A stretch of DNA of 22,201 bases from Candidatus Iainarchaeum sp. (GCA_028713935.1 JAQTNI010000019.1:1-22201), one strand, 5' to 3'. Shown: positions 2,655 to 19,172, numbered from the stretch's first letter. A program made the numbers and translations. The notes: generated by a model from the letters alone, not told the origin.

Positions 2655-2836
2655 GAATATACTAAAAAGAATTTGCAATTCAATTAATATCTTATGGTTG
2701 AATTGTTCAAAGCAGGTTTTTTTGAAAAACTGCCTGAATTTGTATTTTTAATAATTCACTGGAAACCTGCTTCCGAAAATGTATAAAACCGGTATTTGCT
2801 ATTTTTATATTGACTATATTTGAAAGTGGGGTTCAA

Positions 2837-3952
2837 ATGGAGTTTAACACTTATGATGGCGGGATTGTAAGCATAACTGAAAAAGAGCTTGAATGCTTGC
2901 ATTGGAATGAACATTTGTCGATTAGGCAAATAGCAAAAAAGCTGAATATTTGTGCAAGTACTCTTAGAAAAGCAATGGCAAAAAACAATATTTCCAGAAG
3001 GGAAACTGCAAAGAAGATTTTGAACAAACCAACAAAAGAGGTTCTTGAAAAACTCTATTTTGACAGTTCTTTACCTTTAAAAGATATAATCAAAAAATTT
3101 GGCGTTTCTTATTTTACATTTTTTAAATGGCTTAAAGAGTATAATATTCCAAAAAATAGAAGGGCGAAATTAGAGATGCATGCATTTTCTAACAATTCAA
3201 AGGAAAAGGCTTATCTTCAAGGTTTGGTTTTTGGCGATATTCATGCAAGAAAGCATTGTAGGCAGGTAGTTGCTGAATTATCTACAACGCACTCTTCAAT
3301 GATAAACCTTTTTTGTAAAGTGTTTTCAAATTATGGAGTTGTTCGAAAGAGCGCCAAGTATAACAAAAAAACTGGACGGTTTGGCTGGGCGGTTCGTGTT
3401 TCGCTTGATTCTTCATTTGACTTTTTGTTATCAAAGAAAATCGAAGATATTGCTGATGAATACTTTTATTACTTTTTGGCTGGCTTTTTTGATTGTGAAG
3501 GTTGTTTATTCACTTACAATAATCATAATTATATTGGTCTTAGCCTTCTTTTGTACAACTGCAATAAAAATCTTCTTGAGCACATTTTTAAAAAATTAGA
3601 AAAGGACGGTTTTAATCCAAGGTTAAATAAGGCCTCTAGCAAGGGAACAAAAACAAGTGATGGTTATTGTCAAAGAAAAGATTGTTGGTCTGTTAGTTTA
3701 TACGCGAGTGAGGAAGTAAAGCGTCTCTTGGAGTATATGCCTTTTCGGCATGATGAAAGATTAAGAAAGGCGGAATTTGTTTTATCAATTGGCAGCCCAA
3801 AAAAGTGGAAAGATATTGCCAATGATGTAATATCCCTGCGCAACCAAATAAAAGAAGAAGTTAAGATTTCTGTATCCCAAGCGGTCGAACAGTGGAAAAT
3901 AAAACAGGGTGGTTTTGATGAAAGAGGCATTATTCTACAAAAAATTGAATAA
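2837..3952 (+). CDS. free-standing LAGLIDADG-family protein with two N-terminal HTH repeats
   Basis: Two LAGLIDADG motifs (YLQGLVFGDIHA and YFLAGFFDCEGCLF). N-terminal tandem HTH-like repeats (LSIRQIAKKLNICASTLRKAMAKNNI and LPLKDIIKKFGVSYFTFFKWLKEYNI). ATG at 2837 is preferred over the TTG at 2810. A/T-rich TATA-like tract lies just upstream. Confidence 0.8.
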   Translation: MEFNTYDGGIVSITEKELECLHWNEHLSIRQIAKKLNICASTLRKAMAKNNISRRETAKKILNKPTKEVLEKLYFDSSLPLKDIIKKFGVSYFTFFKWLKEYNIPKNRRAKLEMHAFSNNSKEKAYLQGLVFGDIHARKHCRQVVAELSTTHSSMINLFCKVFSNYGVVRKSAKYNKKTGRFGWAVRVSLDSSFDFLLSKKIEDIADEYFYYFLAGFFDCEGCLFTYNNHNYIGLSLLLYNCNKNLLEHIFKKLEKDGFNPRLNKASSKGTKTSDGYCQRKDCWSVSLYASEEVKRLLEYMPFRHDERLRKAEFVLSIGSPKKWKDIANDVISLRNQIKEEVKISVSQAVEQWKIKQGGFDERGIILQKIE

Positions 3953-4919
3953 CAATGCAGTGCAGTGTCAGTTGTGCCCTCATTTTTGCTTTATTGAGGA
4001 AGATAAAAGGGGAAAGTGTGGAGTCAGAGAGAATGTGAGCGGCAAACTCATTTCTTTAGTTTACGAAAAGCTTTGTTCAATTGCAGTTGACCCCATAGAA
4101 AAGAAGCCTTTGTTCCATTTTAAGCCAGGCTCAAAGTGCCTTTCAATTGCAACTGTTGGCTGTAATCTTTCTTGCAGTTTTTGCCAAAATTGGGGAATTT
4201 CGCAGCCGCAAAACAAAGAAATATTTGGGGAGCAGATAAGCGCAGAAAAAGTTGTAGAACTTGCTCTTGAAAAAAATCTTCCAGGCATTGCATATACTTA
4301 CACAGAACCATTAATCGCGATAGAGTTTTACCTCGAAATTATGAAATTCGCTAAAAAGGAAGGGCTTTACAATGTGTGGGTTTCTAATGGATTTTCAAAC
4401 CCCGAGCCAGTAAAGAAAGTAAGCTCTTATTTGGATGCTGTTAACATTGACTTAAAAGGCAACACAAAATTTTACAGTGAACTTTGTGGGGTTCCAACTG
4501 AAAAACCAATTCAAGAAGCATTAAAAATTTACAAAGAACAAGGGGTTTGGATTGAGATTACCAACCTACTAATTCCTGGATTCAATGACAAGCCAGAGCA
4601 GATAAAACAATTAGTTTCCTGGATTAAAGAAAATCTTGGCTATGAAATCCCGCTGCATTTTTCAAGGTTTTTTCCAACCTACAAAATGGCGCAGCTTCCG
4701 GAAACAGATATTTCAAAGCTTGAACGCGCAAAAAAAATTTCTGAATCAGCCGGCTTGGAATTTGTTTTTTTGGGAAATGTGCATGGAAAAGAAAATTCGT
4801 TTTGCCCAGAATGCAAAAGCCTTCTGATTGAAAGGGCGGGTTATTCCGCTGAAACAAAAGGTTTGGACAAAAAAGGCAATTGTGCAAAATGCGGTTACGA
4901 AACAGGAATTGTAATTTGA
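3918..4919 (+). CDS. AmmeMemoRadiSam-system-type radical SAM enzyme
   Basis: N-terminal Cys cluster (CQLCPHFC...GKCGVREN), DPIEKKPLFHFKPGS, and radical SAM CX3CX2C as GCNLSCSFCQNW. C-terminal CPEC...CAKCG. ATG at 3918 overlaps the 3' end of the LAGLIDADG ORF by 35 nt. Confidence 0.85.
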   Translation: MKEALFYKKLNNNAVQCQLCPHFCFIEEDKRGKCGVRENVSGKLISLVYEKLCSIAVDPIEKKPLFHFKPGSKCLSIATVGCNLSCSFCQNWGISQPQNKEIFGEQISAEKVVELALEKNLPGIAYTYTEPLIAIEFYLEIMKFAKKEGLYNVWVSNGFSNPEPVKKVSSYLDAVNIDLKGNTKFYSELCGVPTEKPIQEALKIYKEQGVWIEITNLLIPGFNDKPEQIKQLVSWIKENLGYEIPLHFSRFFPTYKMAQLPETDISKLERAKKISESAGLEFVFLGNVHGKENSFCPECKSLLIERAGYSAETKGLDKKGNCAKCGYETGIVI

Positions 4920-14889: not shown

Positions 14890-15528
14890 ATGCCTGGAAG
14901 AATCAGCATTCGTGGAGACCATGCAAGAGTAAAAACCCTGAGCAGGCGAAGGCACAGCAGGCTTGGTTTTGATCCAGAGCCAAGGATTGTGCAGCGCAAA
15001 TCCAAGAAAATCCTTGTGCGCAGTTATTCTGTTGCAATGGCTTTGGCGCATATTTTGTACCCGGAAAATTTTCCGAAACTTGTTGCAAGCAGCCTTGACA
15101 GGAAAACCACTTTTTCTGAACAAGTTCAAACCAACAAGAACAGCCACAAAGCAGTAAAATCTTTTTACAGAAGGCTTCCTTACAGAAAGGCTCTTGATAG
15201 TGTGTTTCCGCGCCTAAGAGTTTTGAAAGATTTAAAATACAATCCAAGAAAATACCGTGCACATGAGGAAAAAGTAAAACAAAATGCTATCCCGCTTGCT
15301 GATGAGGTCCTAAGTGAAAGTGGCATTGAAATCAACCCGAAGGCAATGAATATAGGTTTTGCAAAAAATGGTTCGCCGGTTTTTTTTGAAATTACTGGCA
15401 TTTATCCAAAAGTACTGCGTAAAAAAATAGAATCAATGCAGGAAAGCCTGGAAAAAAAACAGGCTATGCAATTGCTTGAAGCAATTGAAGCAGAGGCAAA
15501 AGGCAATGTCTTAATTTTTGTGCATTAG
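14890..15528 (+). CDS. hypothetical basic protein (orphan)
   Basis: 212-aa ORF with no recognised domain. TTATTTAAAAA at 14857-14867 lies about 28 nt before the ATG, suggesting a leaderless mRNA. Divergent from truD. Confidence 0.55.
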   Translation: MPGRISIRGDHARVKTLSRRRHSRLGFDPEPRIVQRKSKKILVRSYSVAMALAHILYPENFPKLVASSLDRKTTFSEQVQTNKNSHKAVKSFYRRLPYRKALDSVFPRLRVLKDLKYNPRKYRAHEEKVKQNAIPLADEVLSESGIEINPKAMNIGFAKNGSPVFFEITGIYPKVLRKKIESMQESLEKKQAMQLLEAIEAEAKGNVLIFVH

Positions 15529-15536
15529 TAACATAC

Positions 15537-18296
15537 TTACCTGTATCTAAGAAGTGCGCCCACTCCTCCAAATCCCTTGAAAAATTGCTCTCCTTCTGGA
15601 GTGTCAGTGCTTACAATGTATGTTGTTGCTCCTGTTGAATGGGCTTTTTCCATTAGCCAGTCAGCATAATCAATTTCTTCAAGGACTTCTGTTTGCGTAG
15701 TGCTTCCGCATTTTCCGCATTTGTAGGAAGAAGAATTGAATTTTGAAGGCTCTTTTACAATTACTTCCTCGCTGTTGCCGCATTTTTCGCAGTGAAACTT
15801 GAAAACCATCCATTCAATTGCATCGCTTACAAGCAAATTTGAAACCTTTCCGATTGCAAGTGCCTCTTCAACTTCTTTCTGGCCATAAGCAGCAAGCCCG
15901 CTTTTTACAACTGCTTCCAGAAACCTGTTAACAAGGTTTTTTTCTGTTATTATTTCCGCACCTTTCAGCAATTCATCGGCTTTTTGCACAACTTCCCGTA
16001 TTCCGGATTCGTCAGTGTAAGAAGTGTCAATCATTCCAAGAATTTTCTTTTTTATTCTGTGGTCAATAAGGTCTTTGTTCAAAAAATAGTTTTTTGTCAT
16101 CCCAGGGCCAGCAACAATCAGCCCTTTTAATTTTTCTCCATAAGGAAGGAAAATTTCGTTTATTTTTTCGCTGATTCTTTTGTAAAATTCCTGTGCTGCT
16201 TCTTCGTGCAGGCGTTCAAAACGAACCGAAGAATTATGGACAATTAACCCGTTTGCAATGAAATTCTTGTTTTCAACGCTAATGTCAATCATTTGTGTTG
16301 GCTTGTGCATTTTTTCTATTCTGTTGATTTTTACTGGCAAGAGCTTTTTTGACAGCGCATTTTCCAATTCTAAAATTAAGTCCTTGTTTTTTGCATATTT
16401 AATTATTGAATTCCTGAAAACGTTTTTTCCCATCATTCTTTCATTTCTGAAAAAATTTGTGACTTTTGGAAAATCAGTTATCCTAAAGCCATGTTTTTCA
16501 ATTATTCTTCTTATTTCTGCACCAGAAACAGCAATCTGCCTTACGCTGCTTTTGCCTTTTGTTCCAGCTATTAATTTTTCCAGTTTTTCCGCTTTGTCTT
16601 TTGCACTGAAGCCGATTTCTTTTTGGAACAATTCAAAGGATTCTTTTTCATTCAACTGCACTGTAAAACGCGTTTTTTTGGAATAAGGGTTTCTCCTGTT
16701 GTCATAGCGATTCAAACCTGCAATTATTCCAAAGCGCAATAATGCCAATTGCAATTGTTTTACAAGCTTTTCATTGTTCATTCCAAGCGCAACATGCCCC
16801 TTGCTTACATATCCTTCCGCATCAAACAATCCGCGCAAAAAGCCAGCTAAAACACTGTTTTCCGATTTCAGAATTTTTTTTGGAATCCTGCCCTGTTCAC
16901 AAAGTTCCGGAAAGTTTTCTTTCAAGAACCTTACAATCGGCTTTCCGTATATTCCGACTTCGAAATAGTTTTTTTTACCCCTGAACCTGAAATGGGTGTT
17001 TGCATTGAAAATATTTTTTGCAAGTTCTTCATATTTCTCCGCAACCTGTTTTCTTTGCTCGGAAAGGCGGATTCTTTCTTTTTCAAAATGGCCATCCCCC
17101 AAAAAATATCCAACAAACTGCGCAAGGTCTGTATTGAGCTCTTTTGGCAAAATTAATCCGCTGTTGGGCTTGCAATGCTCTTGCACAAATTCATTAAAAT
17201 CAATGCCAAGGCAATCGCAAATTTTTTTTAGTGTTGCAAATCTCGGATTAAATTTGCCCAATTCCAAAGCAGAAATGTTTGCCTGGAACAAGCCAATTTT
17301 TTTTGCCAATTTTTTTTGTGATAATCTGATTTGTTCCCTTGTTTCCTTGATTTTTCTTCTGCCTGATTCCAAAACAACAAACGAATTGGAGAAATTGCTT
17401 TCCAGTTTTTGCTTTGCTCCGTTTACGCTGATTTTTTCAGGGAGCAGCAAAAATTCGCCTTCCTTCAATTCTTCAGCGGCTTTTTCTTTTATTTTGCCAT
17501 TTTCCCAGCAAAAAAAAACATGGTCTTTGGAAGAGGTTATTTCCATTCTTGGTGCAGCAGTAATTATCTCAAATGCCTCCGGCTTTACAGTTTCCCACTT
17601 ATTATTGATAAAAGAATCTTTTACAAAACCTCCTTCAAAATCCGCTGTTTTTATTCCTGAAGGGTTGTGGCAATCCGCTATTTCAACAATGTTTCCATCG
17701 CTCAGCATTATCAAACTGTCAGCTGCGAGGCATTGGCCCCCCGCACGATGTTTCCCTGAAATGCCTGAAGTGAACCTGCCTAAAATTTCATATTTTTTTC
17801 CAATCAATACTGCAATTGTTGAATCGCTTTTGTCAATCACAACTATTCCAAAAACGTCTTTTGGCGAAACCATTTCTTCAAGAGGGGCAAGATGGAATTC
17901 CGAATCGCACCAGTACAATTTTGTTTTCAATGGTCGTATAGGGCGGATAGTCATTAACTGGATGTCGCTTTTTCCTTCCTGCTGTGAGACATTGCCTGAA
18001 AAAACAACAAGCCCGTTTTTTGGAAGCTTGAAATCAATTTGCTTCAAAAAATTGTCAATTCTCCTTAATGCACCCTGCACATTTTTCCTTGTCTGCGGGC
18101 TTTTTATGTTGGAGCTCTGGCTCATTTCCTCTGTTATCTGCCCGGTTATGCCGCTCCTGTCAACATCTTCCGGCATGTAAACGGAAATTAGCTCTGTTCC
18201 CCTTCCCTTGAATTCCTTGAGCTTTTTGAGCTTTTTCTTGAACAAAGCAAGTTCCGCTTCATCCACCTGTTCCAAACTTTCATGCGCCATAACCAT
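15537..18296 (-). CDS. prf1: peptide chain release factor aRF1, intein-containing precursor
   Basis: GRGTELISVYMP, NIKS (SSNIKSPQ), YxCxxxF (YWCDSEF) and GKHRAGGQ...SSVRFERLHEEAA (GGQ motif split by the insert). C-domain with CxxC...CxxC mini-ribbon and GFGGVGALLRYR terminus. Excluding the 500-aa insert, the extein is about 417-419 aa. ATG at 18296 or 18290 is preferred over the 18380 extension. Confidence 0.9.
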   Translation of the reverse strand: MVMAHESLEQVDEAELALFKKKLKKLKEFKGRGTELISVYMPEDVDRSGITGQITEEMSQSSNIKSPQTRKNVQGALRRIDNFLKQIDFKLPKNGLVVFSGNVSQQEGKSDIQLMTIRPIRPLKTKLYWCDSEFHLAPLEEMVSPKDVFGIVVIDKSDSTIAVLIGKKYEILGRFTSGISGKHRAGGQCLAADSLIMLSDGNIVEIADCHNPSGIKTADFEGGFVKDSFINNKWETVKPEAFEIITAAPRMEITSSKDHVFFCWENGKIKEKAAEELKEGEFLLLPEKISVNGAKQKLESNFSNSFVVLESGRRKIKETREQIRLSQKKLAKKIGLFQANISALELGKFNPRFATLKKICDCLGIDFNEFVQEHCKPNSGLILPKELNTDLAQFVGYFLGDGHFEKERIRLSEQRKQVAEKYEELAKNIFNANTHFRFRGKKNYFEVGIYGKPIVRFLKENFPELCEQGRIPKKILKSENSVLAGFLRGLFDAEGYVSKGHVALGMNNEKLVKQLQLALLRFGIIAGLNRYDNRRNPYSKKTRFTVQLNEKESFELFQKEIGFSAKDKAEKLEKLIAGTKGKSSVRQIAVSGAEIRRIIEKHGFRITDFPKVTNFFRNERMMGKNVFRNSIIKYAKNKDLILELENALSKKLLPVKINRIEKMHKPTQMIDISVENKNFIANGLIVHNSSVRFERLHEEAAQEFYKRISEKINEIFLPYGEKLKGLIVAGPGMTKNYFLNKDLIDHRIKKKILGMIDTSYTDESGIREVVQKADELLKGAEIITEKNLVNRFLEAVVKSGLAAYGQKEVEEALAIGKVSNLLVSDAIEWMVFKFHCEKCGNSEEVIVKEPSKFNSSSYKCGKCGSTTQTEVLEEIDYADWLMEKAHSTGATTYIVSTDTPEGEQFFKGFGGVGALLRYR
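16233..17732 (-). mobile_element. intein (500 aa) with XRE-type HTH and LAGLIDADG homing endonuclease domain, inserted after GGQ of aRF1
   Basis: Begins with Cys (CLAADSLIMLSDG, block A) directly after GGQ. Block B is TSSKDH. LAGLIDADG motifs are LAQFVGYFLGDGHF and LAGFLRGLFDAEGYV. Blocks F/G are MIDISVENKNFIANGLIVHN, followed by the +1 Ser of SVRFERL. Boundary codons were checked on the sequence: TGC at 17732-17730 and AAT at 16235-16233. Confidence 0.85.
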
Positions 18297-18451
18297 CACA
18301 AAAAACAAAATATTTTCAGCTAAGCAAAAGCTAGAAAAAGCAAGAATTCTTTTTGGCTTTGCAAAGCATTTTCCTACCAAACAAATTTAAGGATAAAAAG
18401 CTTTAAAACAGCATTCTTGGCATCAGCGAAAAAACAAGGAATTGAAAAAGT

Positions 18452-18808
18452 TCATCTTGAATGCGCCATTATCGGGCTTTTGTAGGCAATATTTTGTATT
18501 GCTATTGTTGCCGGCACTTGTTCTTTTTCAATTGGCAGGATTATTTTTACAAAAACAGTGCCCTTTTTTTCGATACAGGAAAAAGAAGCGTTTTCAATTT
18601 TGGAAAGCATTTGCCTGGTTATTTTTCTGTCAGTCAAATCCGTAAAATATTTTGATGCATCAAAAATTTCCAAGGCAACAATTTTGCCGTTCTTTTCCAA
18701 ATCAACAACCAATTCCCCAAATTCAATGCTGCCCTTGGATTTTTTGTTTTCATCGTACAAAAAAAGCAGGTCTTCTTCAAAATCATAATCAAGCTTAAAT
18801 TTAGACAT
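18452..18808 (-). CDS. DUF2283-like protein (putative antitoxin partner)
   Basis: KLDYDFEEDLLFLYD...GSIEFGELVVDLEKNGKIVALEIFDASKYF matches the DUF2283 pattern (YDxExDxL...VDxxxxGxIVGIEIxxAS). ATG 18808 overlaps the upstream stop as ATGTCTAA. Confidence 0.6.
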   Translation of the reverse strand: MSKFKLDYDFEEDLLFLYDENKKSKGSIEFGELVVDLEKNGKIVALEIFDASKYFTDLTDRKITRQMLSKIENASFSCIEKKGTVFVKIILPIEKEQVPATIAIQNIAYKSPIMAHSR

Positions 18809-19172
18809 TTCTTTCCACCTTTCTTTGCCAGTCAAGCCTTTGCTTTATAACAGTAATTACAACAATTTTTTGTTCCAAATGATTTATAACTATAACATAA
18901 ACATAAGCGATTTTTTTGAAAGGCACAGACCACAACTTGTATTTTTCAAAAGCCTTTTCTCCAAAGAGAAAAGCCTTGGGAAAATGCTTCGCAGAAGCCT
19001 TTTCCGCAAAAATTTTTTCTGCAAGCTCCAATGCAGCTGGATTTCTGAGATGATTAACCACAATTTCCTTTTCTATTTGCCTTTTTGCCAATCTGAACTC
19101 TGCATGGTTTGTAAAAACAACCGCATAATGGGCAATCTCGCTTAATTTTTCGCGCAAATTTTTGCCATTCAT
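18801..19172 (-). CDS. DUF4258-like protein (putative toxin)
   Basis: VVFTNHAEFRLAKRQI matches the T-x-HA-x2-R-x3-R-x-I signature I associate with DUF4258. 123 aa, translationally coupled to the DUF2283-like ORF. Confidence 0.55.
   Translation of the reverse strand: MNGKNLREKLSEIAHYAVVFTNHAEFRLAKRQIEKEIVVNHLRNPAALELAEKIFAEKASAKHFPKAFLFGEKAFEKYKLWSVPFKKIAYVYVIVINHLEQKIVVITVIKQRLDWQRKVERNV

Follow-up and report, generated by a model that had tools for sequence, protein, structure and literature searches.

The gene for the archaeal release factor aRF1 in Candidatus Iainarchaeum sp. is interrupted at its catalytic GGQ motif by a 500-residue element, which is very probably a canonical class-1 intein that carries a monomeric, double-motif LAGLIDADG homing endonuclease together with two helical modules, and that persists by a homing cycle across DPANN lineages and Nitrososphaerales. 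The DNA analysed here, hereafter the window, is a stretch of 22,201 nt (GCA_028713935.1 JAQTNI010000019.1:1-22201) and is a contig of a metagenome-assembled genome (MAG) of the Iainarchaeota. To our knowledge, aRF1 is the sole class-I release factor of archaea.

Host gene and insert are held by a single long open reading frame (ORF) in the ORF listing of the window (15537..18380, minus strand). The most probable start codon of the precursor is the ATG at 18288-18290; an alternative ATG at 18296 would make the protein 2 aa longer. In silico removal of the insert yields a spliced aRF1 of 417 aa that scores 469.1 bits (E = 1.1e-140) on the NCBIfam aRF1 equivalog TIGR03676, for which the cut-off is 234.7, and the Pfam domains eRF1_1, eRF1_2 (split by the insert) and eRF1_3 are all matched. 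The signature motifs of the family are present as NIKS (aa 61-64), YWCDSEF (aa 126-132; 17895-17915, minus strand, uninterrupted) and GGQ (aa 184-186). The insert separates Gln186 of the GGQ loop from the Ser that is its native neighbour, in the context GKHRAGGQ/C...HN/SSVRFERL (slashes mark junctions). Translation placed Cys1 at 17730-17732 and Asn500 at 16233-16235, which makes the insert exactly 500 aa long, so that the original prediction, made from the sequence of the window, of an insert at 16233-17732 falling exactly at the aRF1 GGQ motif was borne out to the base. The predicted masses of the precursor, spliced aRF1 and intein are 104, 46.8 and 57.1 kDa, the latter two fitting the values of about 47 and 58 kDa given earlier. 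No second aRF1 gene and no tRNA genes were found in the window. Domain 3 of the protein also contains a zinc-ribbon-like insert, CEKC...(20 aa)...CGKC (15708-15791, minus strand; spliced aa 334-361), whose CxxC...CxxC pattern is kept in the family consensus and which has a weak match to Zn_ribbon_Elf1.

Profile searches recognised the insert as an intein at a level well past anything chance would give, with matches above the cut-offs for Pfam Intein_splicing (61 bits, cut-off 35.8, E = 1.4e-16) and TIGR01443 intein_Cterm (17.6 bits, cut-off 15.6), as the original prediction would have it, and a match to TIGR01445 intein_Nterm at intein aa 1-74 that lies under its cut-off. Several NCBIfam models of intein-bearing proteins, among them RNA polymerase A'', RFC, IF-2, V-ATPase A and GyrA, match the insert through their intein portions. 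Residue conservation was assessed in family alignments of 116, 82 and 20 members, in which C1, H71, D483, H499 and N500 are invariant and S68 of block B is invariant or at least 90% conserved. Cys1 is present in 116/116 homologues with parsed junctions, and in the same 116 the +1 residue is Ser, the native Ser of GGQS. The Cys1, terminal His-Asn and +1 Ser that had been predicted are thus all there, with the Cys, His and Asn invariant across the family. The predicted TxxH block B needs rewording: the block itself is present, but the sequence, T66-S67-S68-K69-D70-H71 (TSSKDH), is not a literal TxxH, and because the residues conserved in the family are S68 and H71 the motif is better given as S-x-x-H, with Ser in the place where Thr is more usual. 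With Cys1, (S/T)xxH, the block F Asp, a His-Asn end, a +1 Ser and a predicted Hint fold, the element has the features of a class-1 intein.

Two stretches of the insert match Pfam LAGLIDADG_3 (E = 2.3e-23), and both of the LAGLIDADG motifs that had been predicted were located, each with a conserved acidic residue: motif 1 is LAQFVGYFLGDG (aa 203-214, catalytic D213) and motif 2 is VLAGFLRGLFDAEG (aa 294-307, catalytic E306). The surrounding residues G212-D213-G214 and D304-A305-E306-G307 are invariant or at least 90% conserved in the family alignments. A feature absent from the original prediction is a Cro/C1-type helix-turn-helix (HTH) domain, which was detected by HTH_3 at intein residues 128-182 (43.6 bits, cut-off 23, E = 3e-11), is also matched by HTH_19 and HTH_26, and in a PDB sequence search matched the 434 repressor and C.BclI.

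An AlphaFold2 model of the intein built on the family alignment reached a mean pLDDT (predicted local distance difference test) of 95 and a pTM (predicted template modelling score) of 0.92. It is laid out as N-Hint strands (1-120), helices (122-186), two lobes (201-372), helices (378-460) and C-Hint strands (464-500), with each lobe of the endonuclease core built as alpha-beta-beta-alpha-beta-beta-alpha (Table 1). The top match of the model in a Foldseek search of the PDB was the TliVMA intein (7qss; E = 3.7e-26; TM-score normalised to target length 0.74), followed by PI-PfuI, PI-TkoII, PhoVMA and PI-SceI and then by the free-standing LAGLIDADG enzymes I-DmoI and I-Tsp061I, for both of which the TM-score normalised to target length was about 0.7. 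PI-PfuI was the best PDB match of the intein by sequence (E = 1e-11).

Table 1. The interrupted aRF1 gene of the window and the domains of its intein
Feature	Position	Strand	Basis
aRF1 precursor gene, 917 aa + stop	15537..18290	-	identical to NCBI MAG protein P0001 'Candidatus Iainarchaeum sp.'
N-extein, aa 1-186; eRF1 domain 1 and first part of domain 2, ends in GGQ	17733..18290	-	translation, Pfam
Intein, 500 aa, Cys1 to Asn500	16233..17732	-	junctions, profiles, alignments, model
C-extein, 231 aa + stop; starts at the +1 Ser of GGQ/SSVRF, remaining eRF1 domain 2, then domain 3	15537..16232	-	
N-Hint, intein aa 1-120; block A with Cys1, block B with S68-x-x-H71	17373..17732	-	conserved columns, beta-strand-rich model
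Cro/C1 (XRE)-type HTH domain, five-helix bundle, intein aa 122-186	17175..17369	-	Pfam, PDB matches, model
Double-motif LAGLIDADG endonuclease core, intein aa 201-372	16617..17132	-	Pfam, alignments, model, Foldseek
Second accessory region, all-helical, intein aa 378-460, between endonuclease core and C-Hint	16353..16601	-	model
C-Hint, intein aa 464-500; block F with D483, block G ending H499-N500	16233..16343	-	

Comparison with related loci revealed three states of one chromosomal site. The closest relative of the extein (P0121) is an intein-free aRF1 of 417 aa to which the spliced extein aligns over its full length with 91% identity and no gap, and most other Diapherotrites aRF1s found in the same search are likewise intein-free. 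At the P0121 locus (L001) the site is uninterrupted, reading ...GGTCAA/TCG... within ...CGTGCGGGGGGTCAA/TCGAGTACGCGG... (also quoted as AGATTCACTTCAGGCATCAGCGGAAAACACCGTGCGGGGGGTCAA/TCGAGTACGCGGTTCGAGCGCTTGCACGAGGAAGCTGCACAGGAA). A 552-aa relative (P0059; loci L002 and L003) has a mini-intein of 135 aa at the same position, and the window has the 500-aa form. The window, L001 and L002/L003 share the gene order PEP-utilising enzyme (PEP, phosphoenolpyruvate) - Dph2 - amino-acid kinase - aRF1 - TruD - GT4. Across the family, inserts at the GGQ site fall into size classes of about 500 aa, about 432 aa and about 135-145 aa, with identical boundaries in the 135-, ~432- and ~500-aa classes. Precisely the HTH segment is missing from the ~432-aa class, and the mini-inteins retain the N-Hint (aa 1-112) and C-Hint (from about aa 467 or 482 to 500) alone. 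The claim of a class-1 intein in aRF1 is therefore upheld by family models, splicing residues, the predicted fold and an empty-site orthologue. Two aberrant records were also noted. An 888-aa protein from an NCBI MAG (P0017) lacks about 31 residues across the N-terminal junction and has neither GGQ nor Cys1, which points to a dead gene or else to an artefact of assembly or gene calling. Locus L055 had appeared to be a decayed pseudogene, but this was ruled out, its in-frame stops coming from an assembly N-run that shifts the frame.

The GGQ-site intein turned out to be widespread. Among the 120 best full-length homologues, all 116 with parsable junctions carry the GGQ/C...HN/S insertion. When GTDB species were scanned, each through one genome, at least 295 stretches were confirmed, and the best 80 loci were examined: all 80 are aRF1 insertions at the same site, 78 with GGQ/C and 2 with GGW/C, in Iainarchaeota, Aenigmatarchaeota and Woese-, Pace- and Nanoarchaeota. 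One of them (L048) lies in a complete genome, CP010426 of archaeon GW2011_AR20. In a library of 1.84 billion cluster representatives, 109 matched the intein at E <= 1e-30, and aRF1s of Nitrososphaerales/Thaumarchaeota have the same GGQ-site intein, at about 527 aa and with the HTH. Taken together, these 116 homologues, 80 loci, 109 clusters and the Nitrososphaerales copies make the allele common, so of the suggestion that the site might be rare or undescribed only the second part appears to stand, for the literature searched; at least 80 species representatives have it. Some records with a DPANN-type aRF1 intein are labelled Methanosarcinales (for example L025, L049, L050, L052 and L056) or bacterial (for example L059, Falkowbacteria; L067, Paceibacterota), and these Methanosarcinales- or CPR-labelled (candidate phyla radiation) records are probably mis-binned or mislabelled MAGs.

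The intein and its host gene have diverged to discordant extents. Pairwise identities of intein and extein are weakly correlated (Spearman 0.26 over 5253 pairs), with extremes such as P0011/P0015, in which the exteins are 98% identical and the inteins 69%, and P0069/P0075, in which the exteins are 43% identical and the inteins 64%; this discordance implies horizontal movement. Composition gave no signal of recent foreign origin (GC 0.366 for the intein, slightly lower than the 0.410 of the extein and the 0.391 of the window), and recent acquisition was set aside as a conclusion from this measure. Selection was estimated by the Nei-Gojobori method as the ratio of non-synonymous to synonymous divergence (dN/dS, omega) between the window and L004, the closest intein-bearing relative (79% intein identity); L005 was saturated (pS > 0.75) and was left out, so the L004 comparison alone was used. 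The resulting values, which are rough because dS between window and L004 is 1.1-1.8 and so near saturation, were 0.077 for both extein and N-Hint, 0.085 for the C-Hint, 0.09 for the endonuclease core, 0.10 for the HTH and 0.32 for the helical accessory region, the least constrained part. The low omega and the conservation of both catalytic residues, Asp and Glu, favour an active endonuclease that a homing cycle keeps in place. That homing is likely to be ongoing is indicated by the sporadic presence of the element, by its discordant divergence and by the omega of about 0.1 for its endonuclease and HTH.

The closest structural matches of the element, which are also sequence matches, are the TliVMA and PhoVMA inteins of V-ATPase subunit A (VMA-b site; 7qss, 7qsu and 7qst; PMC8966425). 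Like the window intein they are archaeal class-1 inteins in which a double-motif LAGLIDADG endonuclease is nested in a Hint domain, they have a helical accessory domain between endonuclease and C-Hint where the window intein has aa 378-460, and they too interrupt a catalytic loop, in their case the P-loop. They differ in host, in being only 12-16% identical to the window intein in sequence, and in having an unstructured linker of 28-32 residues where the window intein has a folded Cro/C1 HTH_3 domain. PI-PfuI (a ribonucleotide reductase intein, 1dq3) and PI-TkoII (a PolB intein, 2cw7) likewise combine Hint and LAGLIDADG domains with extra DNA-binding domains, but in hosts of replication and nucleotide metabolism, and their extra domains are placed otherwise and are not a Pfam-recognisable XRE HTH. 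PI-SceI, the yeast VMA1 intein and the paradigm for inteins of this type, resembles the element in pairing splicing with homing and in recognising DNA through a region outside the LAGLIDADG core (the DNA recognition region, DRR), with a fold match of E = 5e-13; however, it is eukaryotic, its DRR is inserted within the Hint domain rather than forming a separate HTH, its TM-score is low (0.43-0.49) and its domains are arranged differently. The intein parts of the IF-2 (NF011418) and RNA polymerase A'' (NF011491) models match the window intein at E values of 1e-19 to 1e-20. The extra domain of PI-PfuI is the 'stirrup'.

The HTH_3 module of the window intein is also present in inteins that are about 30% identical to it and sit in other hosts and at other sites, namely FttA/aCPSF1 (P0287, 1212 aa) and dCMP deaminase (P0303, 862 aa), the latter of which also has an N-terminal LAGLIDADG_2 domain; related inteins in RadA (P0285, P0320) and DHH-family proteins (P0315, P0327) have no HTH match. 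The accessory domains of TliVMA and PI-TkoII (domain IV in the latter), which lie between endonuclease and C-Hint, resemble HTH proteins and modulate the choice of cleavage site (Beyer & Iwai 2022, PMC8966425). We infer that the HTH of the window intein may be a modular target-recognition accessory. Both it and the helical module on the C-terminal side would most likely add DNA contacts beside the LAGLIDADG saddle.

We propose that the 104-kDa precursor would be translated first and would then splice by standard class-1 chemistry. Cys1 would undergo an N-S acyl shift, attack by the +1 Ser (trans-esterification) would give a branched intermediate, and cyclisation of Asn500, aided by His499, Asp483 and the block B residues S68 and His71, would be followed by an O-N shift that leaves a native GGQ-S peptide bond, releasing aRF1 of 46.8 kDa and a free 57-kDa intein. 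Peptide release requires the GGQ loop to reach into the peptidyl-transferase centre, so the precursor is expected to be inactive in this reaction, and since an insert of 57 kDa in this loop is not expected to allow release, aRF1 activity should depend on splicing. If the window gene is the only aRF1 of the organism, termination would depend on splicing too. Any modification of the GGQ glutamine would presumably have to follow splicing. The free intein, or the precursor, would cut the uninterrupted GGQS-coding site of intein-free aRF1 alleles, into which the intein would be copied by recombinational repair. Over the DPANN lineages and Nitrososphaerales this would amount to a homing cycle of invasion, endonuclease loss to give mini-inteins, precise loss and re-invasion.

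Several points weigh against this proposal as stated. As the window is a MAG contig, a single-copy aRF1 in the organism is an assumption. To give the HTH a part in target recognition is to extrapolate, because the accessory domains that have been tested experimentally lie C-terminal to the endonuclease and that of the window intein lies N-terminal to it. By these rough estimates, the omega of the endonuclease and HTH is as low as that of the host protein. An element that is selfish and nothing more is not commonly imagined to be so strongly constrained, which leaves room for a role that benefits the host. Such a role is the basis of the most serious alternative, a domesticated or regulatory intein maintained by host-level selection, in which conditional splicing (responding to redox, temperature or substrate) sets the amount of active aRF1 in the cell, the excised protein acts as an XRE-type regulator of the host, or both. 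The values for the HTH (0.10) and endonuclease (0.09), as low as that of the essential extein (0.08), speak for it, as do the bona fide Cro/C1 repressor-type sequence of the HTH, the retention of the element in very reduced DPANN genomes and the conditional splicing documented for other archaeal inteins, such as that of RadA (as cited in the intein literature). We nevertheless hold it to be quite unlikely. Close relatives are intein-free, including P0121 with its 91% extein identity and most Diapherotrites aRF1s; mini-inteins without HTH and endonuclease, and a class without HTH, occupy the same site; and the discordant divergence of intein and extein implies horizontal movement. A conserved second Cys serving as a redox trap was considered and dropped, as Cys21, a non-catalytic residue in the window intein, lacks conservation in the family and there is no obvious conserved disulfide trap. 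The presence of the HTH in the FttA and dCMP deaminase inteins, too, fits a nuclease accessory better than a regulator specific to aRF1.

It is very unlikely that the intein splices with an inactive endonuclease and is a vertical passenger, kept since imprecise loss would destroy the GGQ loop. Many natural inteins do have dead endonucleases, one of them being PhoVMA (PMC8966425), and the helical accessory region evolves faster than the rest (omega 0.32); against this, D213, E306 and the GDG/DAEG residues are invariant or at least 90% conserved in more than 100 diverged copies, the core has an omega of 0.09, and the element is sporadic among close relatives, with P0069 and P0075 more alike in their inteins (64%) than in their exteins (43%). 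That the segment is instead a permanent non-splicing domain of aRF1, or that the gene is a dead aRF1 backed by an intact copy elsewhere, is extremely improbable. The incomplete genome does leave room for a second copy, and the segment is found in many orthologues, which superficially agrees with what the original prediction had named as a sign of a non-splicing domain. However, the residues for all four splicing steps are invariant, the boundaries are the same at 135, ~432 and ~500 aa, empty-site orthologues align gap-free and the distribution is sporadic. From what is established of ribosome structure, the peptidyl-transferase centre should have no space for a GGQ loop that carries a domain of 57 kDa. 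A fixed, ancient host domain is ruled out by the empty-site and mini-intein alleles in syntenic loci and the weak co-divergence of intein and extein. The aRF1 gene appears to be in use, because an extein omega of 0.077 points to strong purifying selection, and it fills the syntenic slot of its relatives' intein-free aRF1. The reading that best accommodates these data is thus the class-1 intein with a homing endonuclease.

A second intein site was found in aRF1, inside the YxCxxxF motif, where the junctions read ...YLY(M/Q/R)/C...HN/CDDH(F/Y)H... and the Cys of the motif serves as the +1 nucleophile. Its carriers are aRF1s of the Nitrososphaerales/Thaumarchaeota type (P0269, P0276 and P0390-P0478). 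Among 92 Nitrososphaerales-type proteins, 52 have an intein at the YxCxxxF site alone, about 20 at the GGQ site alone and about 16 at both, reaching up to 1463 aa, and according to precomputed domain lists nearly all proteins with the YxCxxxF-site intein alone lack a LAGLIDADG_3 or HTH_3 match. The two inteins (P0421 and P0276 exemplify the YxCxxxF site) are alike in host and in lying inside a signature motif that supplies the +1 nucleophile; the YxCxxxF-site intein differs in occupying the stop-codon decoding site of domain 1, in its +1 Cys and in its absence from the window gene.

Ten DPANN alleles of aRF1 read GGW or GGF in place of GGQ. Without an intein, GGF/S occurs in P0143, P0150, P0153 and P0205 and GGW/S in P0189, P0202, P0219 and P0234, while GGW/C with an intein occurs at L073:1486-1503 and L074:1486-1503; the TGG codon was checked at these two loci and at L084:4001-5233. 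These proteins keep NIKS and YxCxxxF, come from several independent assemblies and fall into three or more clusters by sequence: one with all four GGW proteins, one with three GGF proteins, and one with the remaining GGF protein, P0205, alone. P0234 (GGW) is an orthologue rather than a paralogue, as it lies in the Dph2 - amino-acid kinase - aRF1 - TruD slot of the window gene. As far as we know, the Gln of GGQ is supposed to be a universal catalytic residue. No mention of GGW or GGF aRF1s was found in the papers searched, and these alleles may be more unusual than the GGQ-site intein.

Further features were noted in the window and in the loci of relatives. A free-standing ORF of 380 aa (2810-3952, plus strand) has an N-terminal HTH_28/HTH_23, a weak Cbp1-like match and LAGLIDADG_3 at aa 222-309, and lies directly upstream of, and overlaps, a radical SAM gene (3909-4919); kinship with the intein endonuclease was rejected, the similarity being at motif level alone (E = 0.03). 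In relatives the PEP-utilising enzyme, which is like pyruvate phosphate dikinase (PPDK) or PEP synthase, has an intein of its own (Intein_splicing and LAGLIDADG_3; L001:1-2925, L002:1-2141 and L003:1-2141), and the window contains the C-terminal 124 aa alone of its orthologue, at the contig end (21658-22032, minus strand). Directly upstream of aRF1, two small overlapping DUF2283/DUF4258 genes (18452-18835 and 18801-19172, both minus strand) resemble a cassette of the toxin-antitoxin type. A comparable pair occupies this place in L002, with a Pfam match for the DUF2283 gene alone, and L001 instead has a HicA-like gene on the other side. Between aRF1 and TruD lies an ORF of 212 aa (14890-15528, plus strand) with no Pfam or NCBIfam match. 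This gap next to aRF1 is a variable spot, since aRF1 and TruD are adjacent in L002 and other unannotated ORFs lie there in L001.

We found no description of an intein in aRF1 or eRF1, at either site, in the literature searched, itself an incomplete set with InBase outside it. Release factors go unmentioned in the main text of the 2016 survey of prokaryotic inteins (Novikova et al. 2016) and in the main text of two surveys of eukaryotic inteins, and inteins go unmentioned in a 2019 review of release-factor evolution. The automatic annotation of some homologues by JGI nonetheless reads 'eRF1/intein/homing endonuclease'. The element is thus a canonical intein in an apparently undescribed host and site, in sequences that were already public. 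Inteins are concentrated in proteins of replication, recombination and repair, whereas few are reported from the core machinery of translation (Novikova et al. 2016).

The less conservative idea that the GGQ-site intein gates termination capacity by conditional splicing, or that the excised XRE-HTH/LAGLIDADG protein is a DNA-binding regulator in genome-reduced DPANN archaea, or both, is unlikely; if true, the intein would place a post-translational control on translation-termination capacity. The compact LAGLIDADG scaffold, with its modular Cro/C1 HTH N-terminal to the nuclease, may interest meganuclease engineers. For the study of DPANN genomes there is a practical consequence: intein-bearing aRF1s of about 850-1450 aa are annotated as 'LAGLIDADG family homing endonuclease' or 'helix-turn-helix domain-containing protein', and because of such annotations this universal marker can look absent or aberrant in analyses of DPANN MAGs. 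The natural series of empty, mini, HTH-less and full alleles at the GGQ site in syntenic loci is useful for the study of the homing cycle. Overall, aRF1 is a frequent intein host with two independent sites, each within a signature motif (the peptide-release motif GGQ and the stop-codon-decoding motif YxCxxxF), and its inteins occur in two distant archaeal groups, which widens the known host range of inteins.

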